From a virus (lineage: Duplodnaviria; Caudoviricetes), in the IMG/VR virus record IMGVR_UViG_3300027815_000126, positions 1 to 27,516 of that record: a DNA stretch of 27,516 nucleotides. One strand, given 5' to 3'. A program made the position numbers and the translations under genes. The notes under the pieces were generated by a model. That model was given only the letters and a program-made list of their open reading frames with translations, searched no databases and had not been told where the DNA came from. This document shows, piece by piece, positions 1 through 25,031 of this stretch. How positions within the stretch are numbered: position 1 is the stretch's first letter; each line of letters starts with the position of its first letter.

Positions 1-71
1 TGACGCCCAGCACCGCGGTTCATGACGTGGTAGAAAGCGTTGGGGTACTCTATTCGAAGAGGCCTGGACAT
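1..71 (-). CDS. REP-associated tyrosine transposase (RAYT, Y1/IS200-like HUH), N-terminus only, runs off the window edge
   Basis: Manual translation from ATG at 71 gives MSRPLRIEYPNAFYHVMNRGAGR, the typical RAYT start (RPLRIEYPxAxYHVxxRG). Not in the ORF track. Confidence 0.85.
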   Translation of the reverse strand, partial: MSRPLRIEYPNAFYHVMNRGAGR

Positions 72-207
72 GGGAACAAGTTAGCAGAGAAGTGACATGC
101 AGTCAAGAAAAGATTTGACCCCTTATATACTATTCGAAGAGGCCTGGACATGGGAACAAGTTAGCAGAGAAGTGACATGCAGTCAAGAAAAGATTTGACC
201 CCTTATA
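50..207. repeat. Exact 78-bp direct repeat x2 (50-127 and 130-207, period 80) containing the RAYT start and a REP-like hairpin
   Basis: ctattcgaagaggcctggacatgg...agatttgaccccttata occurs twice. Each copy has GTCAA-N8-TTGAC followed by CCC. Confidence 0.95.
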
Positions 208-232
208 CTTATACTTATATTCTTATACTTAT
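202..232. repeat. CTTATA microrepeat tract next to the REP-like end
   Basis: cttata cttata cttata tt cttata cttat. Confidence 0.85.
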
Positions 233-596
233 CTAAAATATGACGGCTTCTTTTGTCCGCGAAATTGCTCCAATAAGCGTTTTGGGTATTGCCACTCGGG
301 ATCAAGATCAATTGCCCTGAGAAGATTATTTTCTATCGTTTTGTTATAGGCCGGATCTTTGAATTGACTCATCATACCGTATGCTTGGCTGGCTAAGTGT
401 AGAGCCAATACTTTTGGGTCTTGGGACTCATTACCAGATTTTGTTAATAGCTCACCGATACAACTCACTGCCTTTTGGTATTGACCATTTTCAAGACTCC
501 TTTTTCCTTCTTGAAGCAAGTCAACCTCAGTGTTAAGTGCTTGCGCACTAATTACCATCGTAAAAAAGAAAAAAACGATAAAACGGCAGACTTCAT
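229..596 (-). pseudogene. Secreted TPR-like helical protein, apparently frameshifted by 1 nt in a T7-C-T6 tract within the signal peptide
   Basis: ATG at 596 overlaps the upstream stop (ATGA). Adding one T at 569-575 gives MKSAVLSFFFFFTMVISAQA|LNTE..., in frame with the TPR-like body (LLQEGKRSLENGQYQKAV; LLRAIDLDPEWQYPKRLLEQ). Confidence 0.6.
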
Positions 597-1003
597 TGAG
601 TTTTTCCAATTTTTTTGTTAAACAGGTAAAGCAATAAAACGGGTGCATAAAGAATCAGCGCAACGCTAAGAAATTGGCCCATATTATATAAAAAAGAGTG
701 TTCCGGGGAACGATCGGCCGCCGACGTAAAAGCTCCTATTACAAAAATAATGCTCAGTCCTGCATAGAATAAAGCAGCTAACGTTAGTTTCTTTGTCCTG
801 TTTCTCGCTCGTAAAAAGCTGACAGTAAAAATAATGAGGCCGTAGGAAATCAAAAAAATCTCAATAAAAATCCCGCGAGCATTTTTTTCACCCGGTATCG
901 ACGGAACCATATGATATGTCCAGTCGTGAATGATAACACCGAGAAAGATGTAAATCAACGAAATGGCGTATGATGCGTTGAGATATATTTTTTCTCTATT
1001 CAT
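593..1003 (-). CDS. Four-TM membrane protein, candidate immunity protein
   Basis: 136 aa with four hydrophobic segments, AT-rich, starts 2 nt after the toxin-like ORF stop. The immunity role is inferred from position only. Confidence 0.65.
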   Translation of the reverse strand: MNREKIYLNASYAISLIYIFLGVIIHDWTYHMVPSIPGEKNARGIFIEIFLISYGLIIFTVSFLRARNRTKKLTLAALFYAGLSIIFVIGAFTSAADRSPEHSFLYNMGQFLSVALILYAPVLLLYLFNKKIGKTQ

Positions 1004-1005
1004 GA

Positions 1006-3774
1006 CTAATCAGTATAACCTAAAAGTTTAAGTCGTCTATAAACATCGTTTGGAGAGTATTGATGTTGGGCATCCGTTTCCGTCAATTCAAATAAAGGAT
1101 GTCCGCTATCTTTATACAACTCTACAATCAAACTACTACAAATATTTCCCCCAGAAGTCAGCCCAATTAAATTGAAGGTGTTATATGGCATCTCGATGAC
1201 TTCATTAGTCATTGTCCAATTGCCATTTTCGTCCCGATTCCAATAAAAGAAATTACGCTCAATAGCTTGTTTAAGATCTTGGTTGACACCAGCCTCATCT
1301 AAACCGCCAATATTAATATCCGCGCCCTCTGATTGATATTGCGCGATCCAGTCATCAAGCTTGACTATACGAAGGCCTTGCCAAAACATCGGACCCTTTT
1401 CTTCAAAAACCCATTTTTGCCCACCATTATCTTCGTATAGAGTTGCAGTATGATTAATCGGTCCCATTGAAATTGTTTTTATCATAGCTGCTGCTGGAGT
1501 TTTGCCTCTCACAGAAATAACTGTGCCACTTTTTGCAACAGTCCTGAGAACTTCGGCGTTATTATTTAAGTGCTGTGATATTTCAGCATTAGTTCTGAAT
1601 CCAAATCCCTGAAACGCATTTAAAATGCGTTCCGCAGCCTCTGGCGACTTTAATGCCTCGATCCAATTTTCCGGTACTGTTGAATCGTTGGCTTCCCATC
1701 TCAAAGATGTTGTAAATTGACCATTATCGTCAAGGGTCTGACTCATTGAGAAATTATTCAAATTGTTAATGTCTAGCCCCTGCTGATTCATCCATGTCAA
1801 ATCAGTGTCACCCATAAATCGGAATCCATATTGGCCAGATGAGACAACACCGTTTTTAATTGAGAAATTAAAATCACCTTTCATATTTTCTATATCAGCA
1901 TCTCTGTAATTTCCAAACTCATCAAATGTTACCCCAAGCTTCCCTTTGATCGGCTTCACGGTCAAGTCGACCACGTCTTGACCGGATAGAGGATCGACGG
2001 AATAATGAACGTCTTTGATATTCCAGCCGTTTTCGATATAGGTTTTAGACTGAAGTCTTTCATTTTCATCGTAGACCGAAACAGTGCCGTTTTTGAGGCC
2101 CAGGTGCCCTGCTTCGTCTTTACCAAAGGTTCCGCGAAGAATTGTATTCCCCATTTTCACTTCAACAAGATTCTTATAGTCCGCTGTATAGATCTGGTAG
2201 TCCCCATTGGCAAGCAAAACCTTCTTGTATGTGGTTCCATCCTGCTGAACCGTTTGAGGTTTGTTACCCTGAATCTGATCTTGGATAAACGCTCCTACCG
2301 TCTGGAATGACTTGAGGATTGAGCTGATCGAATCTTCTGTTAACACCTGGGTCGCCGAATCCTCAATCGCCTGCGCGAGCCCCTTTTGCTGTACGATATC
2401 TGAAAAATTAATCACTCTTTGAAGATACTGTGTCTGACTCCATGAGTCGGTGCCCGAGACACCAAGTCTTGCTACGTTAAGCGCTGATTGCGAAAAAGCT
2501 CTGAAAATACCATCAAAGATATTGCCACCCAAAACTCCTTCAATTGCTCCCGTTATTGCCCTTGAAGTTAGAGATCCGAGAAGTGGGTCAACACCTTGAG
2601 TGGCATACTCAATACCGAGAGAAGTAGCGCCGCGTATCAAACCATCATTGATTGAATTTATGATCTGCGTGCCTGTGGTTACTCCTTGCCCAAAGATGGT
2701 TCCAATACCCGCGCTGATCGGCGACCCGATGAGGGACGAGAGGCGGGGATCTACGCCGAGTGAGATACCGAGTTTTTGAACTCCAAACTGAGCGAGCGAA
2801 CCAATCAGATCCGGCCTAATTTCGCTGAACGCCAGCTCAAGATTGGATCCGGGATTTGTTATAAGGTGCCCTTGAATCGCTCCGAGAGACAAACCAATGA
2901 TATTGGTGAAACTGGGATCAAGTCCAAGCTCCGTTCCTAAACGCCCCACATTATTAAGAACAACGGCTGATTGAACGGATGCTTGGATATTCTGGGCTTG
3001 GCTAACGGCGACGTGTCCGCCAGCCATCGTTTCAGGTTTAAGACCGCCAATGATTGCTCCTGCGGCCAATGAGCCGAGAAAGTTGGAGATTTGGGGCGAA
3101 ACGCCCAAACTTTCTAGTCCCCGGGAAACCCCAATATTGAGGCCGGTCGAAAGCGCCGTATTGACGATCTGTGCGCCGATGGTCGTGTGCGCCGCGGCCG
3201 CCGCTCCCTGAAGCGCAGGTCCAATGCCCGGCAAGAACCCAATAGCGCTATTAAAAAATCCGACAACCCCACTGTAGACGGTGTTAAGGGCTTGCCCCAT
3301 CGTTCGGAACATATCGCCAACAGGTCCCAAAGTCTTAAGGACCCCGTCAAAAGCCGTTTTAAATGCACCTACGATGCTATTAAAGCCGAGAGTGACGATA
3401 TTGCCTATGGCCGTGACAAAATCCCCTTCTATGGCCGCTACGGCTGTGGAAATGACCGTAAGTATCCATCCGATCTGCTGAAGCCCAGGAATCGGAATCC
3501 AGCTTAAAACCGATCCAATGAGACTTAGGATGCTCCCCCAGAACGCGCCTCTTATCTGCTGGGTTTGGCTAGCTGTAAGTATTTGTGTCTGAGATCCTAC
3601 GCGCGCTTTGGCCGCATTCACTAAGGTAGAATCAGCGGTAACATTCCCCTTCCACGCCTTCATAAAACCGTCTTTTGTGACGGTTAACGTTTCGTCGTGC
3701 TTGTCCGCCCCGATGCCTGGGTCTATATAGGTAATGGTATCTTGAGTTATCCCTGTGATTACAACATAGTGGTA
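1006..3774 (-). CDS. 5'-truncated polymorphic toxin-like protein: C39 peptidase C-half, GG-type cleavage motif, hydrophobic Gly-rich region, C-terminal permuted papain-like (YiiX/YaeF-type) domain
   Basis: The frame is open upstream of ATG 3663 to a TAA at 3775-3777, giving YHYVVITGITQDTITYIDPGIG...VTKDGFMKAWKGNV (C39 H...DP..G...F...W.G pattern). The C-terminus has NHTA (His, 1450-1452), PYN, ICSSLIVELYKDSG (Cys, 1138-1140) and YSPND. Confidence 0.75.
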   Translation of the reverse strand, partial: YHYVVITGITQDTITYIDPGIGADKHDETLTVTKDGFMKAWKGNVTADSTLVNAAKARVGSQTQILTASQTQQIRGAFWGSILSLIGSVLSWIPIPGLQQIGWILTVISTAVAAIEGDFVTAIGNIVTLGFNSIVGAFKTAFDGVLKTLGPVGDMFRTMGQALNTVYSGVVGFFNSAIGFLPGIGPALQGAAAAAHTTIGAQIVNTALSTGLNIGVSRGLESLGVSPQISNFLGSLAAGAIIGGLKPETMAGGHVAVSQAQNIQASVQSAVVLNNVGRLGTELGLDPSFTNIIGLSLGAIQGHLITNPGSNLELAFSEIRPDLIGSLAQFGVQKLGISLGVDPRLSSLIGSPISAGIGTIFGQGVTTGTQIINSINDGLIRGATSLGIEYATQGVDPLLGSLTSRAITGAIEGVLGGNIFDGIFRAFSQSALNVARLGVSGTDSWSQTQYLQRVINFSDIVQQKGLAQAIEDSATQVLTEDSISSILKSFQTVGAFIQDQIQGNKPQTVQQDGTTYKKVLLANGDYQIYTADYKNLVEVKMGNTILRGTFGKDEAGHLGLKNGTVSVYDENERLQSKTYIENGWNIKDVHYSVDPLSGQDVVDLTVKPIKGKLGVTFDEFGNYRDADIENMKGDFNFSIKNGVVSSGQYGFRFMGDTDLTWMNQQGLDINNLNNFSMSQTLDDNGQFTTSLRWEANDSTVPENWIEALKSPEAAERILNAFQGFGFRTNAEISQHLNNNAEVLRTVAKSGTVISVRGKTPAAAMIKTISMGPINHTATLYEDNGGQKWVFEEKGPMFWQGLRIVKLDDWIAQYQSEGADINIGGLDEAGVNQDLKQAIERNFFYWNRDENGNWTMTNEVIEMPYNTFNLIGLTSGGNICSSLIVELYKDSGHPLFELTETDAQHQYSPNDVYRRLKLLGYTD

Positions 3775-3784
3775 TTAATCACAG
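3753..3784. other. Putative tyrosine recombinase core/att site (13-bp arms, 6-bp spacer)
   Basis: Minus strand CTGTGATTAATAC-CACTAT-GTTGTAATCACAG. The arms are inverted repeats at 11/13 positions (outer 9 perfect). It lies 42 bp past the recombinase stop, exactly where the toxin frame is truncated. Confidence 0.7.
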
Positions 3785-3826
3785 AGTAAAGCGATAATGG
3801 TTGCCAGAAACGGCACCGGAAGGGGA

Positions 3827-4720
3827 TTATTCGGCGGCGAGTTCGCGGGGATGGTACTTTTTGACTGCCTTCTTCAAATCCTCGGGATTAAGGCGCGTGT
3901 AAACCGTGGTTGTCGTAATGCGGTCATGCCCAAGAAGCCTTTGAAGATGAACAATCGAGGCCCCTTTTCGAAGCATATGAAGCGCAAAAGCGTGCCTCAA
4001 CGTGTGCGGCGTGCTTGTTCTATTCTCGGGATCCCGGTAGCGATTCATTGTGTAACGAAGCATGTGCTGGCTTATCGGATTGCCCCGATCCGTTAAAAAC
4101 AAATAATGGGTCGGCTTTTTTTGCAAGGTTGGCCGGACTTTGGTCAAATACACTTCAATGGCCTCCCTTGCCTTACGCCCAAACGGCACGATCCGGCCCT
4201 TCCCGCCCTTACCCTCCCGGACAGTCGCAACCCTTTGAGCCAGGTCGACATCCTCGAGCTTCAAATCCCTCAATTCTTGATTGCGCAGACCCGCCGAATA
4301 AAAAAGCTCGAAGATCGCCCTGTCCCTTATTCCATAAGCCGTACACAGACGCGGCTTGCCGAGAAATTCGTCGACTTCCTTTTCGTTCGGCACCACCTTT
4401 GGCAATTTCCCGGGCGTTTTTATTCCTTCAATCGCGGCCGCGGGGTTATAACAAATAAGGAGCTCCCTTTCGAGATAGCGGTAAAAACACCGGATTGTTG
4501 AGAAGCGGTGATAATAAGTATGGTCGCTGATGGTGGGCTTTATTTTTTCAAGATACGCTTCGATATCAACCGGATCCACCTTGAGGATTTCCTTTTTCTG
4601 CTCTTTCAGAAACCGCACAAAAAGATCAAGGTCCTTCCCTATCGTCTTGAGGCTTGTCGGTCTATGACCCCGATTAAACAGATACGTCAAATAATCTTGA
4701 ATTTCTTTGGTCTTTGTCAT
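3827..4720 (-). CDS. XerC/XerD-like tyrosine recombinase
   Basis: RDRAIFELFYSAGLRNQEL, GKGGKGRIVP, HTLRHAFALH, LLGHDRITTTTVYT: complete R-K-H-R-H-Y set. Confidence 0.95.
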   Translation of the reverse strand: MTKTKEIQDYLTYLFNRGHRPTSLKTIGKDLDLFVRFLKEQKKEILKVDPVDIEAYLEKIKPTISDHTYYHRFSTIRCFYRYLERELLICYNPAAAIEGIKTPGKLPKVVPNEKEVDEFLGKPRLCTAYGIRDRAIFELFYSAGLRNQELRDLKLEDVDLAQRVATVREGKGGKGRIVPFGRKAREAIEVYLTKVRPTLQKKPTHYLFLTDRGNPISQHMLRYTMNRYRDPENRTSTPHTLRHAFALHMLRKGASIVHLQRLLGHDRITTTTVYTRLNPEDLKKAVKKYHPRELAAE

Positions 4721-5040
4721 GCGGCGCTCTCCCGCGACGGCGTTTTAATGCTTTTTATGGGCACGGCCGGGTTCTTTGAAATGAGTCCCTCTTTTTCCAA
4801 GTATCTATACAACCCGCGGATCCTTCCAAAGCAATTGTAAAAAGACCAAGCACTTAAAACCGGCTTTCGTTTTTTGAGATACGCCTCGACATCCTCGGTG
4901 TCCGCTTCCAATAAATCCTTTTTTCGTTCCCTTAAAAGAAACTCGGCAAAAAGTCCAAGCTCTTTCCTGTAAGTATCGACGCTCCGCGGCCGAGCGCCGC
5001 CCTTCGATAAAGACTCTAAATAATTCCAGAGCGCCTTCAT
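4717..5040 (-). CDS. Stand-alone integrase N-terminal core-binding (SAM-like) domain, no catalytic domain
   Basis: Aligns by eye over its whole length with the N-terminal ~100 aa of 3827-4720 (EAYL.K.KP..S, IR..YRYLE.E.LI..NPA..I..IKTP). ATGA overlaps at both ends. Confidence 0.85.
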   Translation of the reverse strand: MKALWNYLESLSKGGARPRSVDTYRKELGLFAEFLLRERKKDLLEADTEDVEAYLKKRKPVLSAWSFYNCFGRIRGLYRYLEKEGLISKNPAVPIKSIKTPSRESAA

Positions 5041-6083
5041 TTAGACACCTGCTCGCGGGGATGCGTTTTATCGTGGATTTCCTTTAAGTCGTCGATCACA
5101 AGCCTTGTATAGATGACCGTCGTTTCAATCGAATCGTGGCCCAAAAGATCCTGAATGAAGCGGATATCGCAACCCCTTTTAAGCATGTGCGTCGCACAAC
5201 TGTGCCTCATCGAATGACAGACAATCTTTTTCGTGATGCCGCACCTTTTGGCGTAAAATTTAACGATCCGGTTCGGATCGATGATCAGAAGTTTTCTGCC
5301 GTTGCGCGAAAGAAACAAGTACCCCTCGTCATTGCTTTTTTGAAGTGCCGGCCTTATGTTTTCGATGTAAGTTTTAAGCCACTCCAAGGCCACCTTGCCT
5401 ACTGGGAGAAGTCTTTCTCTTTTACCCATACGCCCTTTACCGTAGCGGATTCGGACTTCTTCTTTTTCGATATCAAGATCCCTGATGTTTATATTCAAAA
5501 GCTCTTCTGCTCTTACCGCCGTCGAATACAGAAACTCAAGCATTGCGCGGTTTCGCACCTCAATCGGATTTGCCCCTTTAACGGAATCAAGAAGCTTAAA
5601 CATTTCTTCTTCGCTCAAGACTTCGCGCAGACGGCTGTTTCGGACAACCGGAATGTCGATATTGGCGGCGGGGTTATAAGGAAGAAGTTCCGTCTTCGAT
5701 AAAAATTTGTAGAAGCTTTTCAGAACGACGATCCTGCCGACCTTGGATTCCTGACTAAGAGGCTTTCCGTCTTTTATCCGGGTCGTGGAATAGACAGAAT
5801 TCTCATATTCCAAAATATCCTTTTTTGTCACATCGTCCAGATACTCAAGGCCTCTTGATCCGCGAAGAAACGTAAAAAGGTGCTTTAGCTCCGCCCGGTA
5901 TTTAACAAGCGTTCTTTCCGAATAATTCCGCACCTTCATGTACGAAATAAAACGGTTCGACATCTCCTCAAAGCCGAGATTTTCCTCCACCACAACCGGG
6001 CGCTCGATCCTTTGGCGCGGAGCGTTTGGCGTAACCGGCACGTATGGATACGATGTCTTTAAAGCGGGTAATGCATTAGACAT
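5037..6083 (-). CDS. XerC/XerD-like tyrosine recombinase
   Basis: RNRAMLEFLYSTAVRAEEL, GKG, HSMRHSCATH, LLGHDSIETTVIYT. AGGAGG RBS upstream. Confidence 0.95.
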   Translation of the reverse strand: MSNALPALKTSYPYVPVTPNAPRQRIERPVVVEENLGFEEMSNRFISYMKVRNYSERTLVKYRAELKHLFTFLRGSRGLEYLDDVTKKDILEYENSVYSTTRIKDGKPLSQESKVGRIVVLKSFYKFLSKTELLPYNPAANIDIPVVRNSRLREVLSEEEMFKLLDSVKGANPIEVRNRAMLEFLYSTAVRAEELLNINIRDLDIEKEEVRIRYGKGRMGKRERLLPVGKVALEWLKTYIENIRPALQKSNDEGYLFLSRNGRKLLIIDPNRIVKFYAKRCGITKKIVCHSMRHSCATHMLKRGCDIRFIQDLLGHDSIETTVIYTRLVIDDLKEIHDKTHPREQVSK

Positions 6084-6241: not shown

Positions 6242-6745
6242 CTATAAACTAGCTTTTATTTGGCCGACGATCTTTTTCGTGTCGGTGCTTTGTTTTGATT
6301 TAAGCGCATCGTGAAGCACTTGGGAATCAACTGCGCGGGCTTCCTTGATCGCGGCCACGGTCTGCTTCATGGCATTTTTATATTGAGCGTATTTTTTAAA
6401 TAGAAATCCGATTGTCGCGCCCGGCGCTATGATCAGCGCTAGAACGATCAAAGCAAAAATCCAGAAACTTAAACCGCCGATAAAATTCCCGATCCTTTCA
6501 ATGAAGCCGACCTTTTTCGGTGTCGTATCAAGCCCGACCGATAGCCTCTTTTCGGTACGCTGGACGACAACCGCGCTGTCGCCGGTAGTCTTTATTACCG
6601 TGGGCTCGGTCACAACCTCTTCGTTCCAATTGTAAACCGTTCGGGGCTTCTCGGGCGCAGTGAGCGACGGAAACCTCGGTGTCACTGAAGCGCATCCGGC
6701 TAAAAGAAAAACCCAAGCACTAAATAGTAGATATCGCATTTTCAT
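6242..6745 (-). CDS. Lipoprotein with downstream TM helix, unimolecular-spanin-like topology
   Basis: Start reassigned to 6745 (AAAGGAG RBS). MKMRYLLFSAWVFLLAGC lipobox, then ~75 polar aa, then TM FWIFALIVLALIIAPGATIGFLF and a basic tail. Confidence 0.55.
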   Translation of the reverse strand: MKMRYLLFSAWVFLLAGCASVTPRFPSLTAPEKPRTVYNWNEEVVTEPTVIKTTGDSAVVVQRTEKRLSVGLDTTPKKVGFIERIGNFIGGLSFWIFALIVLALIIAPGATIGFLFKKYAQYKNAMKQTVAAIKEARAVDSQVLHDALKSKQSTDTKKIVGQIKASL

Positions 6746-6902
6746 GAGCCCGTCTCCTTTCGCCTTTGTTTGGGGTGAAATTCTTGTTGGGCGATTTTTG
6801 ATAAACCTCAATCTTTGCAACCGGGCAATGATTGACCGGCTTTAAAGCCGCACAACCGCACAAACTAAATAAACAAAGACCTGCAATGATCCATTTTTTC
6901 AT
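6720..6902 (-). CDS. Small lipoprotein (lysis-region, o-spanin-like?)
   Basis: MKKWIIAGLCLFSLCGC signal/lipobox. ATGA overlap with the upstream gene. Confidence 0.55.
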   Translation of the reverse strand: MKKWIIAGLCLFSLCGCAALKPVNHCPVAKIEVYQKSPNKNFTPNKGERRRAHENAISTI

Positions 6903-7231
6903 GTCATGCTCCTCCCTAACAGTTTGTCGAGCTTTTCATTTGTGGTTTCAAGCTTCTGGTCAATTTTGGCGATGTCTTTTGACAAGCCCTTAAAAGTCTC
7001 CTCAAGCCTTGTGATTCGTTCAATGTTTGAAACCTGCGCGGCATCGACCGTATTCAGCCTTGTCGTAATTCCTGTCACCCAAAAGAAAGCTCCTGTAACT
7101 AAAACGCCCGTCACTGTCGCAAGAAGCCACCATAAAATTTTGATGGATTCCCCGTTGCTTTGTTTTTTTCGATTTAAAGTTGCGTCTGAATCCGCTGTAC
7201 AGTCCTTCATTTCATGCCTCTTGGGTAACAA
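6899..7231 (-). CDS. Single-TM plus coiled-coil protein (holin/XhlA-like)
   Basis: TM ILWWLLATVTGVLVTGAFFWV, then heptads ITRLEETFKGLSKDIAKIDQKLE. Position after tail genes. Exact start uncertain. Confidence 0.55.
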   Translation of the reverse strand: MLPKRHEMKDCTADSDATLNRKKQSNGESIKILWWLLATVTGVLVTGAFFWVTGITTRLNTVDAAQVSNIERITRLEETFKGLSKDIAKIDQKLETTNEKLDKLLGRSMT

Positions 7232-7406
7232 TTTCTAAAATGATCTGGTTTACTTCATCGAGCTCCTTTTCGAGTACGCCCTTTCGTACTTTTAAAGCAG
7301 CAATGTCCACTCTCTGCGTGACCGTTGATTCGCGGGTGTAAACGATCACCTCCCTCGTCCTTCCGTCAACCTCGGCGGTAAATGTTTCTCCTGTCGGCTT
7401 AAGCAT
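7212..7406 (-). CDS. Small phage hypothetical protein
   Basis: 64 aa, AAGGGGG RBS, fills the operon gap, C-terminal coiled coil. Confidence 0.6.
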   Translation of the reverse strand: MLKPTGETFTAEVDGRTREVIVYTRESTVTQRVDIAALKVRKGVLEKELDEVNQIILEIVTQEA

Positions 7407-7418
7407 AAAACCCCCCTT

Positions 7419-8030
7419 TTATAATTCTTTAAGCTGCATGAGGTTTGAAACCTTATGCGTCAAAAAGGTTGTCATAATGTATTTATCCTCCGACGCCGGC
7501 ATAGTGCCGCGATGAAGATGCGTCCAAGACGCCGGAAAAAGAACCATCCGGCCTTTGACCGGCTTAATGGAAAGCTTCTGATAAAAGAATTCAGTCTCGC
7601 CACCTTCTTCAACCGTATTCAAATAGATGAGGCATGAAAAAAGGCGGTTGATCGTCGCGTCGTTGCCGGCATCAATATGCCAATCGTAAAAGCCCTGTCC
7701 CTTTTCGTACCGTGTTAAAAAATACCCTGTGTCGTATATTGAGAAGGCCTTGAGTACGCCGAACTGCTCCACATATCTTTGGAATGCGAGATTCACAAGA
7801 CCAAAAAGCGATCTATCGATCTCCGAATCCTTGCCAGCTTCTTTACTGAAATCCAAGTCCGCCGATATTTTTACTTTTTTATTAACAACATGAGCGCCGT
7901 CTTGATCGACAACACGGCCTGCAACAACGCCGGGCGAGCCCTCAAAACCAGCCGTGATTTGATCGCATAAATTGTGAGGAATTGCGCCGTCTTCGATGCA
8001 GATAAAACTATTTTCTTTGATCTCATGCAT
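7419..8030 (-). CDS. 2OG-Fe(II) oxygenase (prolyl-hydroxylase-like)
   Basis: WHID (HxD), LIYLNTVEEGGETEF, KGRMVLFP, HLHRG, KYIMT. Confidence 0.92.
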   Translation of the reverse strand: MHEIKENSFICIEDGAIPHNLCDQITAGFEGSPGVVAGRVVDQDGAHVVNKKVKISADLDFSKEAGKDSEIDRSLFGLVNLAFQRYVEQFGVLKAFSIYDTGYFLTRYEKGQGFYDWHIDAGNDATINRLFSCLIYLNTVEEGGETEFFYQKLSIKPVKGRMVLFPASWTHLHRGTMPASEDKYIMTTFLTHKVSNLMQLKEL

Positions 8031-8032
8031 GG

Positions 8033-8980
8033 CTACACCTTGATCGCAACGGCCACCGCTTCAAACGGCGGAATGAATGTGTGTTTATGCGGTGAAAATG
8101 AACACGATAACGGAGGATTTGATCCCGCCGGTTGAAACGCGCCTGAGTTATCATTTCCGGTTAAAGGCGGCTGGTTGGTATCGCCTCCAACTTTTAGAAG
8201 CGCCCCTGTTAAATTCGTTTTTGCGGCGCCCGAATCGTCTTGTTTGGCCCCCACCGGAAACTTGTCGCGTGAATCGGGCACGTTGAAAGTCGTACTGCCG
8301 TCGCCGGTCCCGTAGGTTGTTCCGATTTCGGCAAAAAGCTCGGGAAAGCGCGTTCTTGAAATCGCCGCGCCGTCGCAATGCTTCCATCCTTCCGGCAGGC
8401 TTGCGATGGTGCCGTACCACTCCATCCGCTCTCCGGGCTTCCTGCGCTCTCTGAAATTCTTGACTGACCATTTATCGATATCCGAAGAACCGTTATTTTG
8501 AAAAGAGGCGAGGACCGCGAAAGTCGTTATGCCGGTGGGCGCGGTACTACTTAAGCTAAATTTTCCTGTGATGGTGGTATTCGACGCATCGGCGGCCGCT
8601 ATCACAAAGTATCGGGTGTTGGCCGCCTCGCCGCCGGTGTCGAGATCCGCAAAAGTAAGCGTAATATCTGCCGTTAGTTTTCGCGGAACACGGATAGAAC
8701 CGCTTGCGTTGGTACACCAGATAATACCGGCCTTGATCTTAAGCGACGTGGCGCTGACCCATTCGACCCTTGCTTCATTTGCCGGATCCGCGAGATACCG
8801 AAGATACTCCAAAAGATCAATTGAGCCGCTTTGCGGTTTTCCTGATGCGCCGACAAAGGTTTCAATTGCGTCAACCGGTACGTAAGCATCGTTAACGTCA
8901 TCTGCCTGAATAATGTCGACGCCGTCTTGGAGTGCTGTTTTATTGTCGACGCCTTGCGGATAAGTGGTTGACCCTGCCAT
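8033..8980 (-). CDS. Tail fibre protein with tail collar domain
   Basis: PEGWKHCDGAAISRTRFPELFAEIGTTYGTGDGSTTFNVPD is the collar signature. Confidence 0.9.
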   Translation of the reverse strand: MAGSTTYPQGVDNKTALQDGVDIIQADDVNDAYVPVDAIETFVGASGKPQSGSIDLLEYLRYLADPANEARVEWVSATSLKIKAGIIWCTNASGSIRVPRKLTADITLTFADLDTGGEAANTRYFVIAAADASNTTITGKFSLSSTAPTGITTFAVLASFQNNGSSDIDKWSVKNFRERRKPGERMEWYGTIASLPEGWKHCDGAAISRTRFPELFAEIGTTYGTGDGSTTFNVPDSRDKFPVGAKQDDSGAAKTNLTGALLKVGGDTNQPPLTGNDNSGAFQPAGSNPPLSCSFSPHKHTFIPPFEAVAVAIKV

Positions 8981-10270
8981 TTAAAGACTCCGAAGCCTTA
9001 GTGCGTTTTGTTCAAGTTCAAGCTTTCGTAATGCGGCCGATGCTCTGGAATAACCGATGGACGTGCCGAACTGCACTTCCGCATGAACCCGCCCGTCCTC
9101 AGGACTCATCTGATATTGCACGCGGTCGACTTGATGCTTTGCGACACCGCCGTAGAGCTGGCCGGATCCTCCGTTTAAAACAGAGCCGTAATACTTATTT
9201 GATCCGCCTGCGGCGGTCGTGCCGTAAACGGCACCTGTCTGATTATTCTCTGAATCGACAATGGAAGCTGCGCCAATCGGTAAAGACGTTTCAAATCGTT
9301 TCGTTGTATTCTTCAAACTGATAGAAAGTTGCCGCGCCGGAATGCCTCTTTGACGAAGAATGCTTGTGATGAACTGGCTTGCGACGTTTGAAGTGTAGAT
9401 CGAGCCGTTGGAAATAATTTCCTCGTGCTTGCCGTAGCGGTTGATGCTCGACTGCGACTGCCCTGTCGCTTGGAAAACAACGCCCGGGCTTGCCTCGCCG
9501 CCTTCAAAGTAAATCTTGTTCACGATGTTTTTAAAATCGACCCTGTCGGTGATCTTCACTACTTTGTCGCCGAGATAAAAGACGTGCTTTAAAATCGGGT
9601 CTTGGTTGTACCAGAAAAACTGCAAGTTCTCGTTGATGCCGTATTCGACCGTCCCGAGCAAATCAAAAAGCGTTCTTATTGCTTCCTTCGCGGTCGTTTT
9701 GAAAGAAATCGAATCCGGCGAAAAGTTGCCCGATTGAATAGTGCCGCGGGTGATCCCGGAGTTTCCGACGATGAAGTTGTCGACGATGTTTTGAACAACG
9801 GCGCTCACTTCCTGATTTGTATAAACTTTGCTTGCCCCCGAGTCATGAACAATGATCCGGTCAAGCCAGCCGAAGTAGCCGGTGCATTCTATCGTGATGG
9901 ATCCTGAGTTTCCCGTCTGAATGATTGGCGACACGGCTTCCACGTATCCGCGGTACCAAAGGAGGGCCCCCGATCCCGCTTTCGGAAGATAAATTCTTAC
10001 GTCATCATCGGGGTTAACCTGGAAACCTTTGTAATTCCCGTCAACTTTAATGGTCGCCCGGCCGCACCCGCCGATACGGTTCCACTCCCACGAAAGAGCG
10101 GTGACGTGAGATTCAATGCGTCTTTTAAGCTGAAAATTCTTGTCGCGTATCTCAATGGCATACCTTGACGGAGAAATGGTGACTACCGGCGTCCCGGAAG
10201 AATAATTCCCGATTATGCCGTGATCGGGCGTAACAACGACGCTTGATGGAGATACAATCCGTGCGGTCAT
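8981..10270 (-). CDS. Tail tip/baseplate hub protein (Tal-like)
   Basis: 429 aa in the tail-tip position with hub-like motifs (LSWEWNRIGGCGRATI, DDVRIY, YRGYV, IVNKIYFEGG, SINRYG). Confidence 0.7.
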   Translation of the reverse strand: MTARIVSPSSVVVTPDHGIIGNYSSGTPVVTISPSRYAIEIRDKNFQLKRRIESHVTALSWEWNRIGGCGRATIKVDGNYKGFQVNPDDDVRIYLPKAGSGALLWYRGYVEAVSPIIQTGNSGSITIECTGYFGWLDRIIVHDSGASKVYTNQEVSAVVQNIVDNFIVGNSGITRGTIQSGNFSPDSISFKTTAKEAIRTLFDLLGTVEYGINENLQFFWYNQDPILKHVFYLGDKVVKITDRVDFKNIVNKIYFEGGEASPGVVFQATGQSQSSINRYGKHEEIISNGSIYTSNVASQFITSILRQRGIPARQLSISLKNTTKRFETSLPIGAASIVDSENNQTGAVYGTTAAGGSNKYYGSVLNGGSGQLYGGVAKHQVDRVQYQMSPEDGRVHAEVQFGTSIGYSRASAALRKLELEQNALRLRSL

Positions 10271-10867
10271 TTAGGAGGCCACCGTTCTTATTTTGTGTTC
10301 CCAGTTTCTGGCGACGCTGGTTTTCGTGAAACGAAGAATGATCTCATCGCCGTTTAAATCAGACGCCGCAAGATCAATCTTGTACCAGCCGTTTCCAACT
10401 TCGGAAGCGCTATTAGCGCAAGCCGCAAACGCTCCCGCATCTATAGAACGCTGGCACGTAATGCCCGTAAGCCCCGTTTCGGCTGTCTTGCCGTCGGTAT
10501 CGTCAACCATGAGAAACATATAGTTCGCGTGGGCAATATTTTTCTTATACGCGATATCCACAATATCGCCGGGCTCTTTGGGGTACATGGTCAAAACGGT
10601 CGTTTTCGCACCGCTGGTCGTCGTTTTCACGATAACGACAACGCCATCGGCGTTCATTTCGGAGGCGGTTAGATCGAGATAATAAATTCCCTGCCCTATG
10701 TCAGTTGCTTCGTTCGTGCAGTCGGCCAAGGCCCCGCCGTCTTTTGAAACTTCTGAATCGAGCCCCGCGGCACTGGCCACCGGGTCCCCGTCGGCGTCAT
10801 AGATTGCAAAATATGCTCTGTAAGCTTGGTTTTTTATCGGAATCGGTTTAGCGTCGGTGGCGGCCAT
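10271..10867 (-). CDS. Virion structural protein with two tandem ~95-aa beta domains
   Basis: Internal duplication: DGGALADCTNEATDIGQGIYYLDLTASEMNAD vs DAGAFAACANSASEVGNGWYKIDLAASDLNGD. Confidence 0.7.
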   Translation of the reverse strand: MAATDAKPIPIKNQAYRAYFAIYDADGDPVASAAGLDSEVSKDGGALADCTNEATDIGQGIYYLDLTASEMNADGVVVIVKTTTSGAKTTVLTMYPKEPGDIVDIAYKKNIAHANYMFLMVDDTDGKTAETGLTGITCQRSIDAGAFAACANSASEVGNGWYKIDLAASDLNGDEIILRFTKTSVARNWEHKIRTVAS

Positions 10868-10876
10868 GGTTTCTCC

Positions 10877-12133
10877 CTATCTTGTTACTTCATTAAAAAA
10901 CTTTGTGCGCTGGTGCGGTGTGTTGTCATGGCGCACGCGCGAGGGCTGTCCGGCGGCGCCGATGGCAAAGAAGTTGTATTCTCTCCCCGTTGCGTCGGCG
11001 GTTGTCTGGTTTAAAGTAAATCCGTCGCCGTCCATCGAAACGACATCCACATCCGCATTAACGGTCGGCGGCAGTGAGGCGCCTGCGGTGATGTGCTGCA
11101 AACAGCGGTTTGACGCTTGTTTCTTATGCGCCTGCATATTTGCTTGGTTGTCGCGTGAATCATTCGCCGTCGCAAAGCGCTCGGAAGAACTCACTCCAAC
11201 ACCGATGCAAAAATTCCCCTGCGCAGTAATCACACCGCTTGGAGCCTTCGATTGAGATAAAAAGAGAATCGCTTGCGGCGAAAAACCCAAGCCCGTCTTG
11301 GAAAAGTTCCCCGTTGAAGTCGGCTCGACGTCTAAGGCGGCGTAACAGCGAACGTTTGCGCCGCCGATAGCCACGTATCCCCAGCGCGTGGCTGTTGCCG
11401 CTGAATTCGTTGACCAGTTGAGTGTAAAACCGTCCGAGTCAAGCGAGGTGAGACTTGCCTCTTTTGTAACGGTGAACTGATGGCGTCTGCAGATGGAGCT
11501 TGCGACCTGCGAGCCTTCGGTGTCAGAGGTGATCGCCGCATCGTCGCAAGAAATGGCATTTACCGTATTCCGGCCGGAGGAGCCGAACCCGATGGTATAA
11601 ACAAGATCCCCGACATAACCTTCGGCTGTATTAATAGTGCCGTTCGCCACAATGAGTCCAACCGGCGCAAAACCCACGCCCGTAATCGCCTGAGAGCCGG
11701 TTGTGGTGAGCGAATCAAATATCCCCACTTCGACGTCCACGTCATCGCCCGCGATTGCGAGAAAATAAACCACGCGCGAAGCAGCCGGAGCAGTCGTCCA
11801 ATTAATCGTGAAGCCGTCCGAATCCATCGAAACAAAATCCGCTTCCATGAGCGTCGTGTCTGTGGGTTGCGCGGAGACGATACACTTATTACTCCGAAAC
11901 CCCTTGCAAGTGTTGGCCGTGGCCAAGGTGTCATCGTCGTGCGCGGAGGCGCACCATCTTTTCGTTGAACTTTTTGCCGCGCCAAAAAAGGGGTTAAGAT
12001 CAGACTGCCCGCTGTCTTCGGCGGTAGCAGCGGCGCTGAAGAATAGAATAAGCTTCGGCAGGAAACCGAGGCCTGTAACGGCTTGGTTTCCTGTCGCGGT
12101 ATTCGTTGTAAAACTACCGGCCTTGACGTTCAT
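10877..12133 (-). CDS. Putative virion adhesin/structural protein with three ~130-aa repeats
   Basis: Three copies of TG[LV]GFxP...S[ML]DxDGFT[IL]N...[FY]xAI. Confidence 0.7.
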   Translation of the reverse strand: MNVKAGSFTTNTATGNQAVTGLGFLPKLILFFSAAATAEDSGQSDLNPFFGAAKSSTKRWCASAHDDDTLATANTCKGFRSNKCIVSAQPTDTTLMEADFVSMDSDGFTINWTTAPAASRVVYFLAIAGDDVDVEVGIFDSLTTTGSQAITGVGFAPVGLIVANGTINTAEGYVGDLVYTIGFGSSGRNTVNAISCDDAAITSDTEGSQVASSICRRHQFTVTKEASLTSLDSDGFTLNWSTNSAATATRWGYVAIGGANVRCYAALDVEPTSTGNFSKTGLGFSPQAILFLSQSKAPSGVITAQGNFCIGVGVSSSERFATANDSRDNQANMQAHKKQASNRCLQHITAGASLPPTVNADVDVVSMDGDGFTLNQTTADATGREYNFFAIGAAGQPSRVRHDNTPHQRTKFFNEVTR

Positions 12134-12463
12134 TTATCCGATGTAGTCCTTTAGCTTTTGAAGAACGTCCGCAAGCTTGTCGTCGCCGCGGTCATTGAGA
12201 ATAGTTACGGTTTCATCAAGGGCTTGGCTAAGTTCTCTTTTTTTCTTTCTTCCGGGGTTTTGAATATCCGCGTACAGTTCAACTTCCTCCGGCGTCGCCC
12301 CGACGATTGTTTGGTTATCCGCCAGAAGCTTCGGATTCTCCACATTCAAAAAAACCTTAAAGCCAGCCGGAACGATTTCCTCGGTCGGCAATATCAGCGG
12401 ATCCTCGTCTGTCGTGACCGCCCGTATGATTCTTGTCGTTTTATCGATGATGATCTTGTCCAC
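12134..12463 (-). CDS. Phage hypothetical protein (tail region)
   Basis: 109 aa, GTG start with AAGGAGG RBS, abuts the next gene. Confidence 0.7.
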   Translation of the reverse strand: MDKIIIDKTTRIIRAVTTDEDPLILPTEEIVPAGFKVFLNVENPKLLADNQTIVGATPEEVELYADIQNPGRKKKRELSQALDETVTILNDRGDDKLADVLQKLKDYIG

Positions 12464-12481
12464 TATCCGCCTCCTTTTCGA

Positions 12482-13246
12482 TCAGTAATATGCCGCTCTA
12501 AATTCGATCTCGATCCTTGTACTTCCCGTGCCTGTAAAAACAAGCGTGTTATCTCCGGGATTGAGCGTCAAAAAATCCCCTTCGAAGTTTTTGATATCAT
12601 CGACCCCGTCATTTGTGACGGAAAGATCCTCCGAATCCATTCGATTATTGATTACAAGATTTTTCCCCATTAAAACCGTTGCCCGGTACTGCATGGTTTC
12701 CCCCGTCGTCTGGTTTTCAAGCCTGCAGTTGTCGATGATGTTGCCTGAGGCGTTGGAAATCCGAACCCTGACCCTCGATGGGGCGTTTCCCGGGTTATTG
12801 ACGACAAAAGGGGTTGTGCTTATTGCCGGGTTCTCGTCATGAGTCGTGACGCTTGAGCCGTACCAAAAGGGGTCGGACGCCACCAGATCCACCGAAAAAT
12901 CTGCGAACGTCCGAAGCGTCTTATATGAATACGCGAAATTCCGGTACTGGACTTTAAGGATTCGATCATCATCCAGCGTCAAATTCTGTTCGGATGAGCC
13001 CTCAAACGCGCCTTTTAAATCATCGAGTTTCGATCTTAGGTTGTCGTAGTTTGAGCCGGTGATTGTCCCGCGGATTCTAACGTTTAATGTTTTCCGTTTC
13101 CCGATAGGCACAACCGATCCGTGAAACTTCGGAAGATCAAATTCTTGAATGCTTTTGGCAACACTGATATTCATATCTTCGACCGCAACGTTGTTGTTGC
13201 TGTCGAGATCAAGCGTCCCAATATTTATGTCGATTTCATCAGCCAT
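12482..13246 (-). CDS. Distal tail protein (Dit)
   Basis: Directly after the TMP. ASDPFWY, NNPGNAP, GDFLTLNPGDNTL, C-terminal FRAAYY are typical siphophage Dit motifs. Confidence 0.85.
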   Translation of the reverse strand: MADEIDINIGTLDLDSNNNVAVEDMNISVAKSIQEFDLPKFHGSVVPIGKRKTLNVRIRGTITGSNYDNLRSKLDDLKGAFEGSSEQNLTLDDDRILKVQYRNFAYSYKTLRTFADFSVDLVASDPFWYGSSVTTHDENPAISTTPFVVNNPGNAPSRVRVRISNASGNIIDNCRLENQTTGETMQYRATVLMGKNLVINNRMDSEDLSVTNDGVDDIKNFEGDFLTLNPGDNTLVFTGTGSTRIEIEFRAAYY

Positions 13247-15063
13247 TAAAGTCTTTCCCTTTCAACGTCGATAAACTGCGACAGCCGGGGCCCGATATTC
13301 CTTACAACTTGATCCGCCAGATTGTCAGGAGTAAAAACAGGATTATTGATCACGATCTGGATGTGATAGACATTCCCGCCTGAACTTTGATTTGGAGAAA
13401 CCATAGCGCCGCGAGGTAGATTCAGTAGTTCAGGTCCCCGCTCACCCACAAGAACGGCTCCCGTGCGCGTGACGGTGCCTCCACCGGCAAGACCCGGAAT
13501 ATTGGGAAGCTCGAGTTCTTTATTTTTTGATTCGTTCAGCGCCTTTTCGGCGGCATTAATCTGGCTAAAAGCGTTAGCCGCGCTCACAATGACGGCGGCA
13601 AGCTCGATGGCGGCGGTGATTCGCGCAAGCGGGTTCACGGCTGCTTTGATCGCTATAATCGCTTTTGCAGCGGCAACGCTGGCATTTAAAACCACCGATA
13701 TCCCTTTTAGGGCGCTTGATCCTGTTGCAATCGAAAGCTCTTGGCTTAAATTGGCCACAGCCGATGCCAGCTGAAACTGAAGTTTAAATTTTTGAAGCTC
13801 GGCCTTTAAAACCGCTTCTTGTGTTTTTTGGTGGTTTTCAAGCTCCGCTTCGCTGATCGCTTTTTTGTATTGAAGTAACTTTGCTTGCGTGGCTTTATCA
13901 AGATCCGCGGCTTTTAAAAATGCATCGATTTTCTTTTGTTCTTTTTCGAGATAAGCTTGTGTTTCCTGCTCTTTAATAAGTTTTGCGGTCTCGGAACCTG
14001 AAATTAGCTGATTTAACTTTGAATCATTAAATAGCCGGTCGATCTCATCCATCCGCTGATTATGAAGAACCTGATCGGCTTCTAACTGGGCATTGACTTG
14101 GGCGTGTAAATCGGTAAGGCCTCTTAAGAAATTTTCTTCCGAAGAAGGCCTCGCTTGATTATTTTGAGCTTCCCCGCCCGAGGCAATGGCTGAAGCATTC
14201 TGCTGCTGTAAAAACCGGGCGATATCGGGATTCTGTTTATTCGCCTCCATAAACTTTTTCGAGCGATCACCCTCGGATTCTGCGTTGATCTTCTTAAGAC
14301 TCTCGGCAAGATCGAGCGCTCCTTTTGTCATGCCGGCCATAGCCGCCTGAACACCCGGCGACTTAATAACGAAATTCCCGAGCTCCGCTAAAACCTCATG
14401 GATGGCGTTCCCCAGCTGCGCCTGTGCGCCCGAGAAGTTTTTTACATCCTCGGTCGCGGCCGAGCCAAAGCGCGTGGAAAGAATTTCTAAGAGCTGGTCG
14501 TACTGCTCGGATTTTGTTTTATTTTCGTCAAGCTCGATGCCCCATTTCTTTAAAGCCGTAAGATTGCCTTCGGCGGCCTTTGCCATAATGAGGGCTGCTT
14601 GCGGAAGATCCCGGCCCGTTACCGTCGCAAGATTAAGCGTTGCCCGCGTAATCTTATCCATCTGACTCGGGCCCACGTTGCCGAGATTTATAAGGGTTGT
14701 GATTGTCTCTTCTAGGGCGCTTTTACTAAACCGCGTCGACCGGGAAAGACTATCTGCTAAGTCCTCATACTTTTTCGATAAGGCATCGGTCGTGAAACCT
14801 TGATTTTGAAGCGCCATCGTAAGCCTGTGAAAGGCTTCCTCATCTTTTTGGGCTTCAACGACGGCACTTTTCATGAGCTCAATGACAGGCCCGATGGCTT
14901 TTTCCACGATAAAAAGCTGGGAAGCAAACCCCGCCCAGCCCAGATTCATCGAATCGGTGGAGCTTTTTGAATTATCGCCAATTTGTTTTAGAGCGCCGTT
15001 AAGTTTCCCCAAGGCGTCTTTATCGTCCAAGAGAAGCTTTATGCTTAGCGTTGTGTCGCTCAT
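13246..15063 (-). CDS. Tail tape measure protein
   Basis: 605 aa, Ala-rich helical, C-terminal LAGGGTV...VGERGPELL motif, follows the chaperones. Confidence 0.9.
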   Translation of the reverse strand: MSDTTLSIKLLLDDKDALGKLNGALKQIGDNSKSSTDSMNLGWAGFASQLFIVEKAIGPVIELMKSAVVEAQKDEEAFHRLTMALQNQGFTTDALSKKYEDLADSLSRSTRFSKSALEETITTLINLGNVGPSQMDKITRATLNLATVTGRDLPQAALIMAKAAEGNLTALKKWGIELDENKTKSEQYDQLLEILSTRFGSAATEDVKNFSGAQAQLGNAIHEVLAELGNFVIKSPGVQAAMAGMTKGALDLAESLKKINAESEGDRSKKFMEANKQNPDIARFLQQQNASAIASGGEAQNNQARPSSEENFLRGLTDLHAQVNAQLEADQVLHNQRMDEIDRLFNDSKLNQLISGSETAKLIKEQETQAYLEKEQKKIDAFLKAADLDKATQAKLLQYKKAISEAELENHQKTQEAVLKAELQKFKLQFQLASAVANLSQELSIATGSSALKGISVVLNASVAAAKAIIAIKAAVNPLARITAAIELAAVIVSAANAFSQINAAEKALNESKNKELELPNIPGLAGGGTVTRTGAVLVGERGPELLNLPRGAMVSPNQSSGGNVYHIQIVINNPVFTPDNLADQVVRNIGPRLSQFIDVERERL

Positions 15064-15395
15064 GACTTTATTTCCCGTTTAAGTTTTTCCGCGAACAAAT
15101 AATCCATGTAATTACAAATCTCAACAATCCGGTTTGGCTGATCGAGATATCCGCCCGGATACGGCAAAAAACCTTTTTCACGCCAATTGTGAAGCTCATA
15201 GGCGAATTTGATGAGTCCGCCTTCTTTTAGATAAAAACCCGGACACCGATCAATCACGATGCCGTCAAACTTGAAGCAAGCACTTTCCGGCTTTGGTCTG
15301 TCACAGCCCATGATTTCCCGGACCGCCGGTGCGGCCGTCTCGCATTCGTGGGATTTAACGAGCTCCGACTGCAAGACAGCGATGATTAGTTTTTT
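15060..15395 (-). CDS. Tail assembly chaperone GT extension (via -1 frameshift)
   Basis: The -1 frame is open from the slippery site (KLIIAVLQSELV...LPYPGGYLDQPN) and overlaps the TMP start (ATGA). Confidence 0.8.
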   Translation of the reverse strand, partial: KKLIIAVLQSELVKSHECETAAPAVREIMGCDRPKPESACFKFDGIVIDRCPGFYLKEGGLIKFAYELHNWREKGFLPYPGGYLDQPNRIVEICNYMDYLFAEKLKREIKS

Positions 15396-15805
15396 AGGTC
15401 TTGCCCTGTCATGGTGTTCAAGGCAATCACTTCACTCGCCAAAATATAGGTAATGTGAAGACGCTCATAAGCGTCCAATGTCTCCTCGGACACGAGGCCT
15501 TTTTCGTCAGAAACAAAAGGAACGCCTGACCCGTCCTTTTTCGTGATGCCGGTATGCCCCGTGACGCTCTGCTTGATGAAATCTCTAAAAACCTCATGAA
15601 GCTTTTCGTTCACCTCTTCGTACTTTTGGGGATCCTGCGCTTTCAAACTCTCGAAGCTTTCCTTCGTGACTTTGTTACTCATCTCCCTCAAAAAAGAGAG
15701 CCTTGAAATGAGACTGCGATACGTTTTCGCGGGCAACGCCCTCACGCTGAATACCGCGTCTTTCACCTTCACTTCGTGCTTGTCCGTCAAATCGGGAATG
15801 ATCAT
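15386..15805 (-). CDS. Tail assembly chaperone G
   Basis: Lies between tail tube and TMP and ends in the slippery heptamer. Confidence 0.8.
   Translation of the reverse strand: MIIPDLTDKHEVKVKDAVFSVRALPAKTYRSLISRLSFLREMSNKVTKESFESLKAQDPQKYEEVNEKLHEVFRDFIKQSVTGHTGITKKDGSGVPFVSDEKGLVSEETLDAYERLHITYILASEVIALNTMTGQDLKN
15389..15395 (-). promoter_or_regulatory. -1 ribosomal frameshift slippery heptamer A AAA AAC
   Basis: CTA AAA AAC TAA at the end of chaperone G. Confidence 0.85.
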
Positions 15806-15842
15806 TTTTACCCTTTCTTTTTCGGTTAAAGTTACTTAGAAA

Positions 15843-16769: not shown

Positions 16770-16784
16770 TTTGATCTCCCTTTT

Positions 16785-17249
16785 TTACATAACCGTTTTC
16801 GGATTTATTTGAGCGTGGCGGTATTTGACTTCAACCGTTATCACGAGCCCCACTTCCCCCTGGCCTTCAATCGTGTCGAACGGCTCGACCGCCGTGATTG
16901 ACGTATCGATGGCGTTTCCCCCGCGCGTGATGTCCTCTTTTAATTTCTTTTTGATGTCCCCTAAGAGACTGTTTAAAACGGTATCCGGCGCGTTTGGAGA
17001 TCCTTCGTCGATGCGCGTCCAAAGAGTGAGAAAAACTTTCAGACTGCATGTCGTAAGCGGATAGGCGTTGTCTGATCCGTCTTCAGGACCGGAATTGACG
17101 ATAATTGTCGGAACAGATGCCAAAGTGTTGCCGTTTACATCCCACTGCTGGACGCTTGCGATGTTGTTGTCAAAGCCGTTGGCAACTGAAATAAGAGAAA
17201 GTGCCGATTTTATGTTTTGGAAAATATTTTCACGGACGGTATTCGGCAT
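16785..17249 (-). CDS. Tail terminator (gpU-like)
   Basis: 154 aa acidic, RENI, DITRGG.A, position before the tube gene. Confidence 0.7.
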   Translation of the reverse strand: MPNTVRENIFQNIKSALSLISVANGFDNNIASVQQWDVNGNTLASVPTIIVNSGPEDGSDNAYPLTTCSLKVFLTLWTRIDEGSPNAPDTVLNSLLGDIKKKLKEDITRGGNAIDTSITAVEPFDTIEGQGEVGLVITVEVKYRHAQINPKTVM

Positions 17250-19680: not shown

Positions 19681-19693
19681 TTATTCGGTTCCT

Positions 19694-20023: not shown

Positions 20024-20035
20024 ATTTTCTCCTCA

Positions 20036-20086
20036 AAGAAACGTACTTGTTGGCGCAGTCTTGGTAAAACCGCGCCAGCAAGTACG
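20036..20086 (-). terminator. Hairpin/intrinsic terminator after the major capsid gene
   Basis: CGTACTTGCTGGCGC (20086-20072) pairs with GCGCCAACAAGTACG (20056-20042) with one mismatch, followed by TTTCTTT. Confidence 0.65.
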
Positions 20087-20105
20087 CTTTCTTAAGATTC
20101 GCCGA

Positions 20106-21065: not shown

Positions 21066-21097
21066 TTAAATTTCCTCCCCTTTTCGTTGTTGTGGTT

Positions 21098-25013: not shown

Positions 25014-25031
25014 CACTTCCTCCAAAAGGTT

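Follow-up and report, generated by a model that had tools for sequence, protein, structure and literature searches.

Gene content of the locus

The DNA analyzed here, referred to throughout as the window, is a stretch of 27,516 nucleotides from a virus of the Caudoviricetes (IMG/VR record IMGVR_UViG_3300027815_000126). A tailed-phage virion module is followed on the minus strand by a trio of recombination genes (two complete Xer-like tyrosine recombinases with a SAM-domain-only gene between them), by an open frame lacking a start codon, here called headless, and by two small genes and the beginning of a transposase gene (Table 1). The relationship of this headless frame to giant protein genes of the Omnitrophota, and the part played in it by the recombinases, are the subject of this report.

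As the preliminary description of this DNA proposed, the headless frame begins in the middle of a C39-like domain without a start codon; it is open for 922 codons behind a TAA at 3775-3777, has a His as residue 2, and starts 55 nt after the stop codon of recombinase 2. A search of longer proteins returned 29 matches of 2,079-4,356 aa, many with RHS, LamG and C39 domains and, where named, from Omnitrophota, and an exhaustive homologue search returned 269 matches. By homology, the headless frame is the last 922 codons of a 2,000-4,500-aa Omnitrophota RHS/LamG protein. Among the 97 proteins with a match starting in the first 12 query residues (a set with a few misplaced rows), the median distance from that point to the C-terminus is 949 aa, and the target giant gene is present in 81 of 401 genomes in the phylum sample. 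The alternative envisaged earlier, that homologues would be stand-alone genes starting at the Met at 3663, does not describe the proteins found: these are of giant size, and their matches start at the same His. A start at Met 3663 was itself rejected, as no Shine-Dalgarno-like run was seen upstream by eye and homology extends 36 codons further 5'. Short frames in 20 fetched regions of other genomes were contig edges or other breaks, none of them His-initial.

In intact giant genes the Pfam C39 match, above cut-off, covers only model positions 46-126 of 133. The upstream half had been expected to hold the catalytic Cys; at the position that we take to be that of this residue, Phe, not Cys, is present in all 81 proteins with the motif (95 examined, 14 without a motif match). 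The domain thus appears to be C39-like, with the conserved His present and the catalytic Cys missing, and not an active peptidase. A LamG-containing insert splits it just upstream of the His in six proteins (P0004, P0009, P0014, P0015, P0033 and P0050). Further into the frame, a motif resembling a double-glycine leader is a candidate cleavage mark ahead of the tip, and the apolar region is 10% charged versus 22% further on, with one segment only above a hydropathy threshold of 1.6.

The recombinase trio

The two catalytically complete Xer-type recombinases recognized in the preliminary description stand, and between them lies a gene that it did not name, overlapping each neighbor by 4 nt and encoding only a SAM domain; its product is predicted to be a DNA-binding accessory factor. 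Compared with the trios at loci L001, L007 and L087, recombinase 1 is 63-72% identical to the first gene and the SAM-only protein is 45-48% identical to its counterparts, and recombinase 2 is 67-73% identical to its close relatives. Neither long recombinase belongs to chromosomal XerC/XerD: the catalytic residues are present, yet scores are below the NCBIfam equivalog cut-offs (230-238 versus 330-335 bits) and the tree places both in clades separate from host XerC/XerD. Recombinase 2 groups with the second gene of the tandem pairs in L032/L017 (97% support in a fast tree). The element is likewise distinct from IMEX and RIT elements. IMEX elements have no recombinase of their own and use host XerCD at dif; the present element has its own trio, and its target is a coding His codon. 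RIT elements carry three full-length tyrosine recombinases; here the middle gene encodes 107 aa with the SAM domain only. Among viral contigs, a close trio was found only in L001, where it is cut off inside recombinase 2, and no match was found for the tip, recombinase 1 or the site patterns. No close relative was found among INPHARED phages, all 711 matches being below 60%.

A conserved junction at a His codon

A symmetric core site had been described at the junction between trio and headless frame. An inverted repeat is present there, and its arms pair at 10 of 12 positions; within the window alone it is unremarkable, since 11 window positions reach 10/12, so that outside support is needed for the site. 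Across 60 distinct His junctions, the window's is the most symmetric (the next best pairs at 8). No second copy of the site was found within the window (best 18-20 of 30). In the His-junction rows, CA is present in 58/58 by selection, and the T of the next codon in 58/58.

The DNA to the right of the junction is conserved on one side only. From the His codon on, the 27-nt right arm is matched 27/27 in the giant genes of three genomes (G001, G003 and G410); one other junction matches over 23 nt and the remaining 55 of the 60 over 19 nt or fewer. Compared with one another, these three genes share 9/9 codons right of the His and 3-5 left of it, and six control pairs share 0-4 codons on the right. 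Because three host genes have the exact arm yet diverge to the left of the His, the arm is likely to be element-borne. Over the first 10 codons after the His, the window is identical to G001 at 9/10 (background 38%, P 0.001) and to G003 at 10/10 (background 46%). The orphan tips of L007 and L087 match the window at 2/6 and 0/7 codons after the His, respectively, and the right arm is missing in both. This pattern of arm conservation fits left junctions made of a host N-terminus followed by the element arm with its tip. The window resembles G003 for about 40 codons after the His and then diverges, which suggests added homologous exchange. In G410, contig 92 (L195/L171) breaks 53 nt after the arm-bearing His codon, as expected if several tips follow it in the population.

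The same junction in other elements

A survey of recombinase homologues, proposed in the preliminary description, found truncated His-initial frames with different tips behind related trios. L006 and L007 are one element (100% identity over 14.5 kb), in which phage tail genes and the trio precede a His-initial frame of 907 codons with another tip; a 133-aa gene, a RAYT transposase and then host-type genes follow. In L087, the trio precedes a His-initial 1,071-codon frame with a third tip, and L001/L008 end inside recombinase 2. The headless frame follows the trio by 42-63 nt in the window, L006/L007 and L087, homology to giant genes begins within 2 nt of the His codon in each, and outside the shared region their tips are unrelated. 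A headless fourth tip (P0034) and a 67% identical recombinase (P0163) each lie on a Logan contig of 6,281 nt; the two probably share one contig, a fourth element with the junction.

Both junctions can be seen in G001, a genome labeled Planctomycetia and placed in an order that also contains records named Omnitrophota. Its contig 1 carries a gene of 2,942 aa that is open across the His; the tip of this gene, 74% identical to the window's over 917 aa, is followed by homologues of both small window genes. On the same strand, 41,658 bp downstream, come the trio and an orphan tip of 1,071 aa. The DNA between the junctions holds genes for DISARM, methylases, a primase and a helicase, together with a second integrase gene and a terminase-like one; matches to capsid, portal or tail were found neither among the open reading frames scanned nor against the window virion genes. 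The module is thus common to phages and this capsid-less island. The second junction predicted for the window, joining a long upstream frame to a tip and small gene, is seen in a relative (an upstream frame of 2,025 codons) and is not visible on the window's own contig. By arithmetic, excision between the two His codons of G001 would leave an open frame of 3,096 codons. Among 39 genomes of its order, G001 alone has a close recombinase, and the right arm is present in 3 of them, G001 included. Neither GC nor GC3 distinguishes the two tips of G001.

The variable tip and its small genes

The hydrophobic region, enzymatic tip and abutting membrane gene of the preliminary description are all present, the toxin and immunity functions being predicted only. 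Profile searches with the tip matched 3KW0 (E 3.9e-7) and 2IF6 (E 0.0058). The structural model (pLDDT 82.6) gave the same two as top Foldseek matches, with TM-scores of only 0.36-0.39 by query length. With a His before the Cys and a modeled papain-like fold, the tip is, on these features, a permuted NlpC/P60 domain of the C92/YiiX type. An atlas lead (PF05708 in 11% of a cluster) was not borne out in Pfam, where no family, PF05708 included, was found at E 0.01, and no toxin family matched any tip scanned. The tip is predicted to be a toxin from the arrangement of the locus: a conserved N-terminal body carries a variable C-terminal tip with an adjacent tip-specific small gene, as in polymorphic toxins. 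The last 200 residues of 79 proteins fall into 25 clusters, the largest with 46, the tips share about 400-640 similar residues, and a tip-specific small gene lies directly downstream in the window, G001, L007 and L087.

The predicted immunity protein of the window is 48% identical to the product of the gene after the same tip type in G001, and no other fetched locus has it; an atlas search returned no family. The small helical protein encoded next has no Pfam or PHROGs match. An ATG overlapping the stop of the 136-aa gene (540-600, minus strand) and the body of the next gene lie in different frames on either side of a T run, which may reflect a frameshift, a slippage site or an assembly error. 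RAYT genes often lie 3' of the tip and immunity genes at giant-gene loci, and repeated 5' ends of RAYT/Y1 transposase genes occur in the window (3-230) and in L006 (14446-14800). Elsewhere in G001 (L101; contig 3, about 383-399 kb) is an array of stand-alone genes of ~990 aa with a signal-peptide-like start, a degenerate C39 C-terminal half and different tips; small genes follow each tip, and no recombinase was seen in that stretch.

Interpretation and alternative explanations

Taken together, the use of one junction codon in three elements, their different tips, the two junctions of G001 and the one-sided conservation of right-arm DNA make it quite probable that integration of a phage or island at the His codon fuses a host N-terminus in frame with the predicted toxin tip and immunity gene of the element. 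The N-terminal 2,000-3,500 codons of the host gene would thereby gain the element-borne tip and its predicted immunity gene, and the old tip would be left headless behind the recombinase operon with its own small gene, where read-through could keep the old immunity in place. Like XerC/D, the two complete recombinases would work as a pair, binding the two arms and cutting around the His codon, where only about 4 nt would need to match; no other DNA in the family is as constant, which may be why this codon is used, and excision would restore the old tip. Because the G001 cores differ at 2/6 positions, the enzymes would have to tolerate mismatches, as some transposon integrases do. On balance, we lean toward regarding these phages and islands as delivery vectors for toxin tips, each keeping a headless tip and immunity gene behind its attP, so that recombination at one codon would rearm a giant toxin and excision would reverse the change.

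The position of the window in such a cycle can be read in two ways. Its module is of the element-borne type, and by a modest preference we take the window to be the right prophage junction in a host gene already swapped once, which fits the RAYT gene after the module, as at four chromosomal loci (L007, L089, L095 and L161) and unlike the left end in G001. It is also quite possible that the window represents the attP of an excised genome with its cargo, which fits the presence of both element-type arms and a module of the G001 type.

Several observations weigh against the proposed fusion. Only G001 shows both ends, and its island, with a second integrase and a terminase-like gene, may be composite; its two cores have 4 nt in common across the junction, with mismatches at 2/6 positions, and neither identity nor a quick tree assigns either of its tips to the N-terminus. 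G003 and G410 carry the right arm, yet no close recombinase was found in these incomplete genomes, and the G003 giant gene has a TAG 53 codons after the His. No empty-site relative was found: 0/11 fetched flanks were syntenic, and relatives of the upstream lnt gene were 61% identical or less. Close trios are also rare, occurring in 1/401 Omnitrophota genomes, and among the best 80 of 400 metagenome loci only four (the window, L006, L007 and L008) are close to recombinase 2.

Integration might only disrupt the gene, the headless module being the cut-off 3' end of a host gene and the element having no full tip. The window does show one junction only, a RAYT gene follows the tip and immunity genes in the window as at the four loci named above, and the G001 island could be composite. 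We nevertheless consider simple disruption rather improbable, given that the upstream gene of G001 is full-length and open across the His, and shares with the window both the exact right arm and the three-gene module. A broader doubt concerns function: the swap may be real and the giant protein no toxin, with the tip an exchangeable enzyme, a lipid or cell-wall amidase, on the surface of a predatory or episymbiotic cell, and with the small genes accessory. No toxin family matches the tips scanned, neither structural relative (3KW0, 2IF6) bears the name of a toxin, and the accessible text of one study proposes that the giant proteins of Omnitrophota process polymers of the cell wall (10.1101/2023.11.21.568195). 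The RHS repeats of many homologues, the apolar region, the unrelated tips, the tip-specific small gene and the orphan tip arrays fit polymorphic toxins, however, and leave the surface-enzyme explanation unlikely, though it deserves attention.

The trio and headless tip might also constitute a silent cassette copied into the expressed gene by homologous recombination, a route proposed for orphan rhs tips, the recombinases serving only to move the cassette. The similar residues shared by the tips (about 400-640) would permit such copying, and the divergence from G003 after ~40 codons suggests that homologous exchange occurs in addition; but the fact that three elements break within 2 nt of a single codon, together with a symmetric recombinase-type site and one-sided conservation, makes this a poor account of the data and a very unlikely one. 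Finally, although the repeat alone is at chance level and the contig ends in a duplicated transposase start, an assembly chimera or chance truncation is scarcely credible when the same junction recurs in independent assemblies whose recombinases are only 63-73% identical.

Other features of the window

The virion operon, running from terminase to tail fibre, is as first described; the claim that the window is a complete siphovirus is not upheld, as it is a fragment in which the terminase is truncated at 27516 and the left part of the genome, with the early genes, is missing. The order of the virion genes before the trio is that of L001/L008 and L006/L007, and no tail sheath match (Pfam, PHROGs) was found among them. 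Bacteria of the Omnitrophota are likely to be the host of the phage. The module also includes a Twister-P5 ribozyme (25661-25720, minus strand; 55.4 bits versus a gathering score of 37.6) among the small genes after the terminase, a 601-aa beta-helix protein (17875-19680) between the head and tail-completion genes, a 2OG-Fe(II) oxygenase gene (7419-8030) after the fibre gene, and a SpoVG gene (26244-26510); a SpoVG-like gene is also present in the G001 island. Promoter and terminator scans gave results near shuffle level.

Table 1. Features of the window (positions counted from its first letter) and, in the last row, loci of a second class of elements, positions within each locus.
Feature	Position	Strand	Details and basis
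RAYT/Y1-type transposase, 5' end	3..230	-	Exact 78-nt duplication; contig end; L007 homologue is Y1_Tnp
Small helical protein travelling with tip	229..648	-	55% identity to second gene after G001 tip
136-aa four-helix membrane protein, predicted immunity	593..1003	-	4 hydrophobic segments
Headless 922-codon frame, 3' end of giant RHS/LamG/C39-like protein gene	1006..3774	-	Homology to giant proteins
Variable tip, permuted papain-like NlpC/P60 domain, predicted toxin	1009..1620	-	His775 before Cys879; profile and fold
Conserved apolar Gly-rich region, residues 75-520	2215..3552	-	Predicted membrane-passage region; common to all tips
Double-glycine-type leader-like motif ending at residue 77	3544..3585	-	Loose pattern, 60/95 homologues
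C-terminal half of C39-like domain, from invariant His	3640..3771	-	Pfam C39 model positions 88-125, E 0.035
27-nt right-arm block	3745..3771	-	Identical in three host giant genes; likely element-borne
Attachment site (putative)	3754..3783	-	12+6+12 inverted repeat: element-side arm 3772-3783, core CACTAT 3766-3771 (His-Tyr codons), right arm 3754-3765
Recombinase 2, complete Xer-like tyrosine recombinase, 297 aa	3827..4720	-	Tyrosine recombinase domain match; catalytic motifs
SAM-domain-only gene, 107 aa	4717..5040	-	Phage_int_SAM_1 only, without catalytic motifs
Recombinase 1, complete Xer-like tyrosine recombinase, 348 aa	5037..6083	-	Phage_integrase and SAM; catalytic motifs
Virion module	6242..27516	-	Pfam and PHROGs matches, 34 open reading frames: terminase fragment, lambda-type portal, S49 protease, capsid, tail tube, tape measure, Dit, collar/fibre
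Second-class loci	L032 3886-6240; L167 2169-3590; L031 14169-16211; L061 1749-2435	n/a	Tandem Xer-like pair by tip fragments

Relationship to known systems

The mode of integration resembles that of prophages at E. coli icd, with a variable enzyme tip and its own genes probably as the new replacement. In the accessible account of those prophages (PMC10111431), a tyrosine recombinase uses a site in a coding sequence, the element supplies an in-frame 3' part, and the displaced host piece remains at the far end; the identity block there reaches about 250 bp and function is unchanged, whereas here the replacement is ~2.8 kb, has an end unrelated to the displaced piece and brings its own small genes. 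In G001, as in that type, the site lies inside a protein gene that stays open across the left junction, which is not visible for the window's phage; the identical core of ~7 bp at both junctions is not found, the G001 cores sharing 4 nt.

Orphan tips of Rhs and CdiA proteins likewise combine a conserved body, a variable tip, an adjacent small gene, headless orphans and nearby recombinase genes, but the accessible parts of two sources (10.64898/2026.07.13.738213; PMC5727410) give no crossover codon or att pair, while here a single fixed codon marks the junction, and a tailed phage or a 42-kb island serves as carrier. As far as the former source is accessible, it describes exchange of orphan rhs tips by homologous recombination and cites Xer systems near poly-immunity clusters. 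The phage-encoded MuF toxins also pair a variable toxin with immunity in temperate phages; as described in the available text (PMC5576092), these are whole phage genes, whereas the present element has only the 3' third of a gene and needs the N-terminus of a host gene. The Omnitrophota giant proteins come from the same phylum, have C39 domains and carry mobile genes in their flanks, the two papers concerned dealing, in their accessible parts, mainly with far larger proteins (10.1101/2023.11.21.568195; 10.64898/2026.06.07.730766); the accessible text of the first makes no mention of recombinase, integrase, prophage or polymorphic, and that of the second lists flanking recombinases without a mechanism.

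A second class of loci was also observed, with a primase and a tandem Xer-like pair beside tip fragments that start deeper in the tip or, in L061, in the RHS core. Tip fragments follow the pair on these primase islands (L032, L061 and L167) as well, but there is no SAM-only middle gene, there are no virion genes, and the break points are located further into the tip or within the RHS core, which suggests that other recombinases target other points of such genes. No description of a site-specific tip swap was found in the literature, a search that did not reach most subscription papers or cover supplements.

Implications

Homologous recombination is the usual explanation for the gain of tips by polymorphic toxins; integrases next to rhs genes are mentioned in the accessible text of PMC5727410 without a tested role. 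With the crossover codon, both junctions and the conserved arm defined, the role of such recombinases becomes directly testable. The results also suggest that these recombinases accept mismatches in the core and preserve the reading frame. The swap would give a function, and a source of variation, to giant genes that are widespread in the Omnitrophota, and the delivery of tips by phages and islands, if true, may represent lysogenic conversion by gene fusion, a dedicated site-specific route for the diversification of polymorphic toxins.

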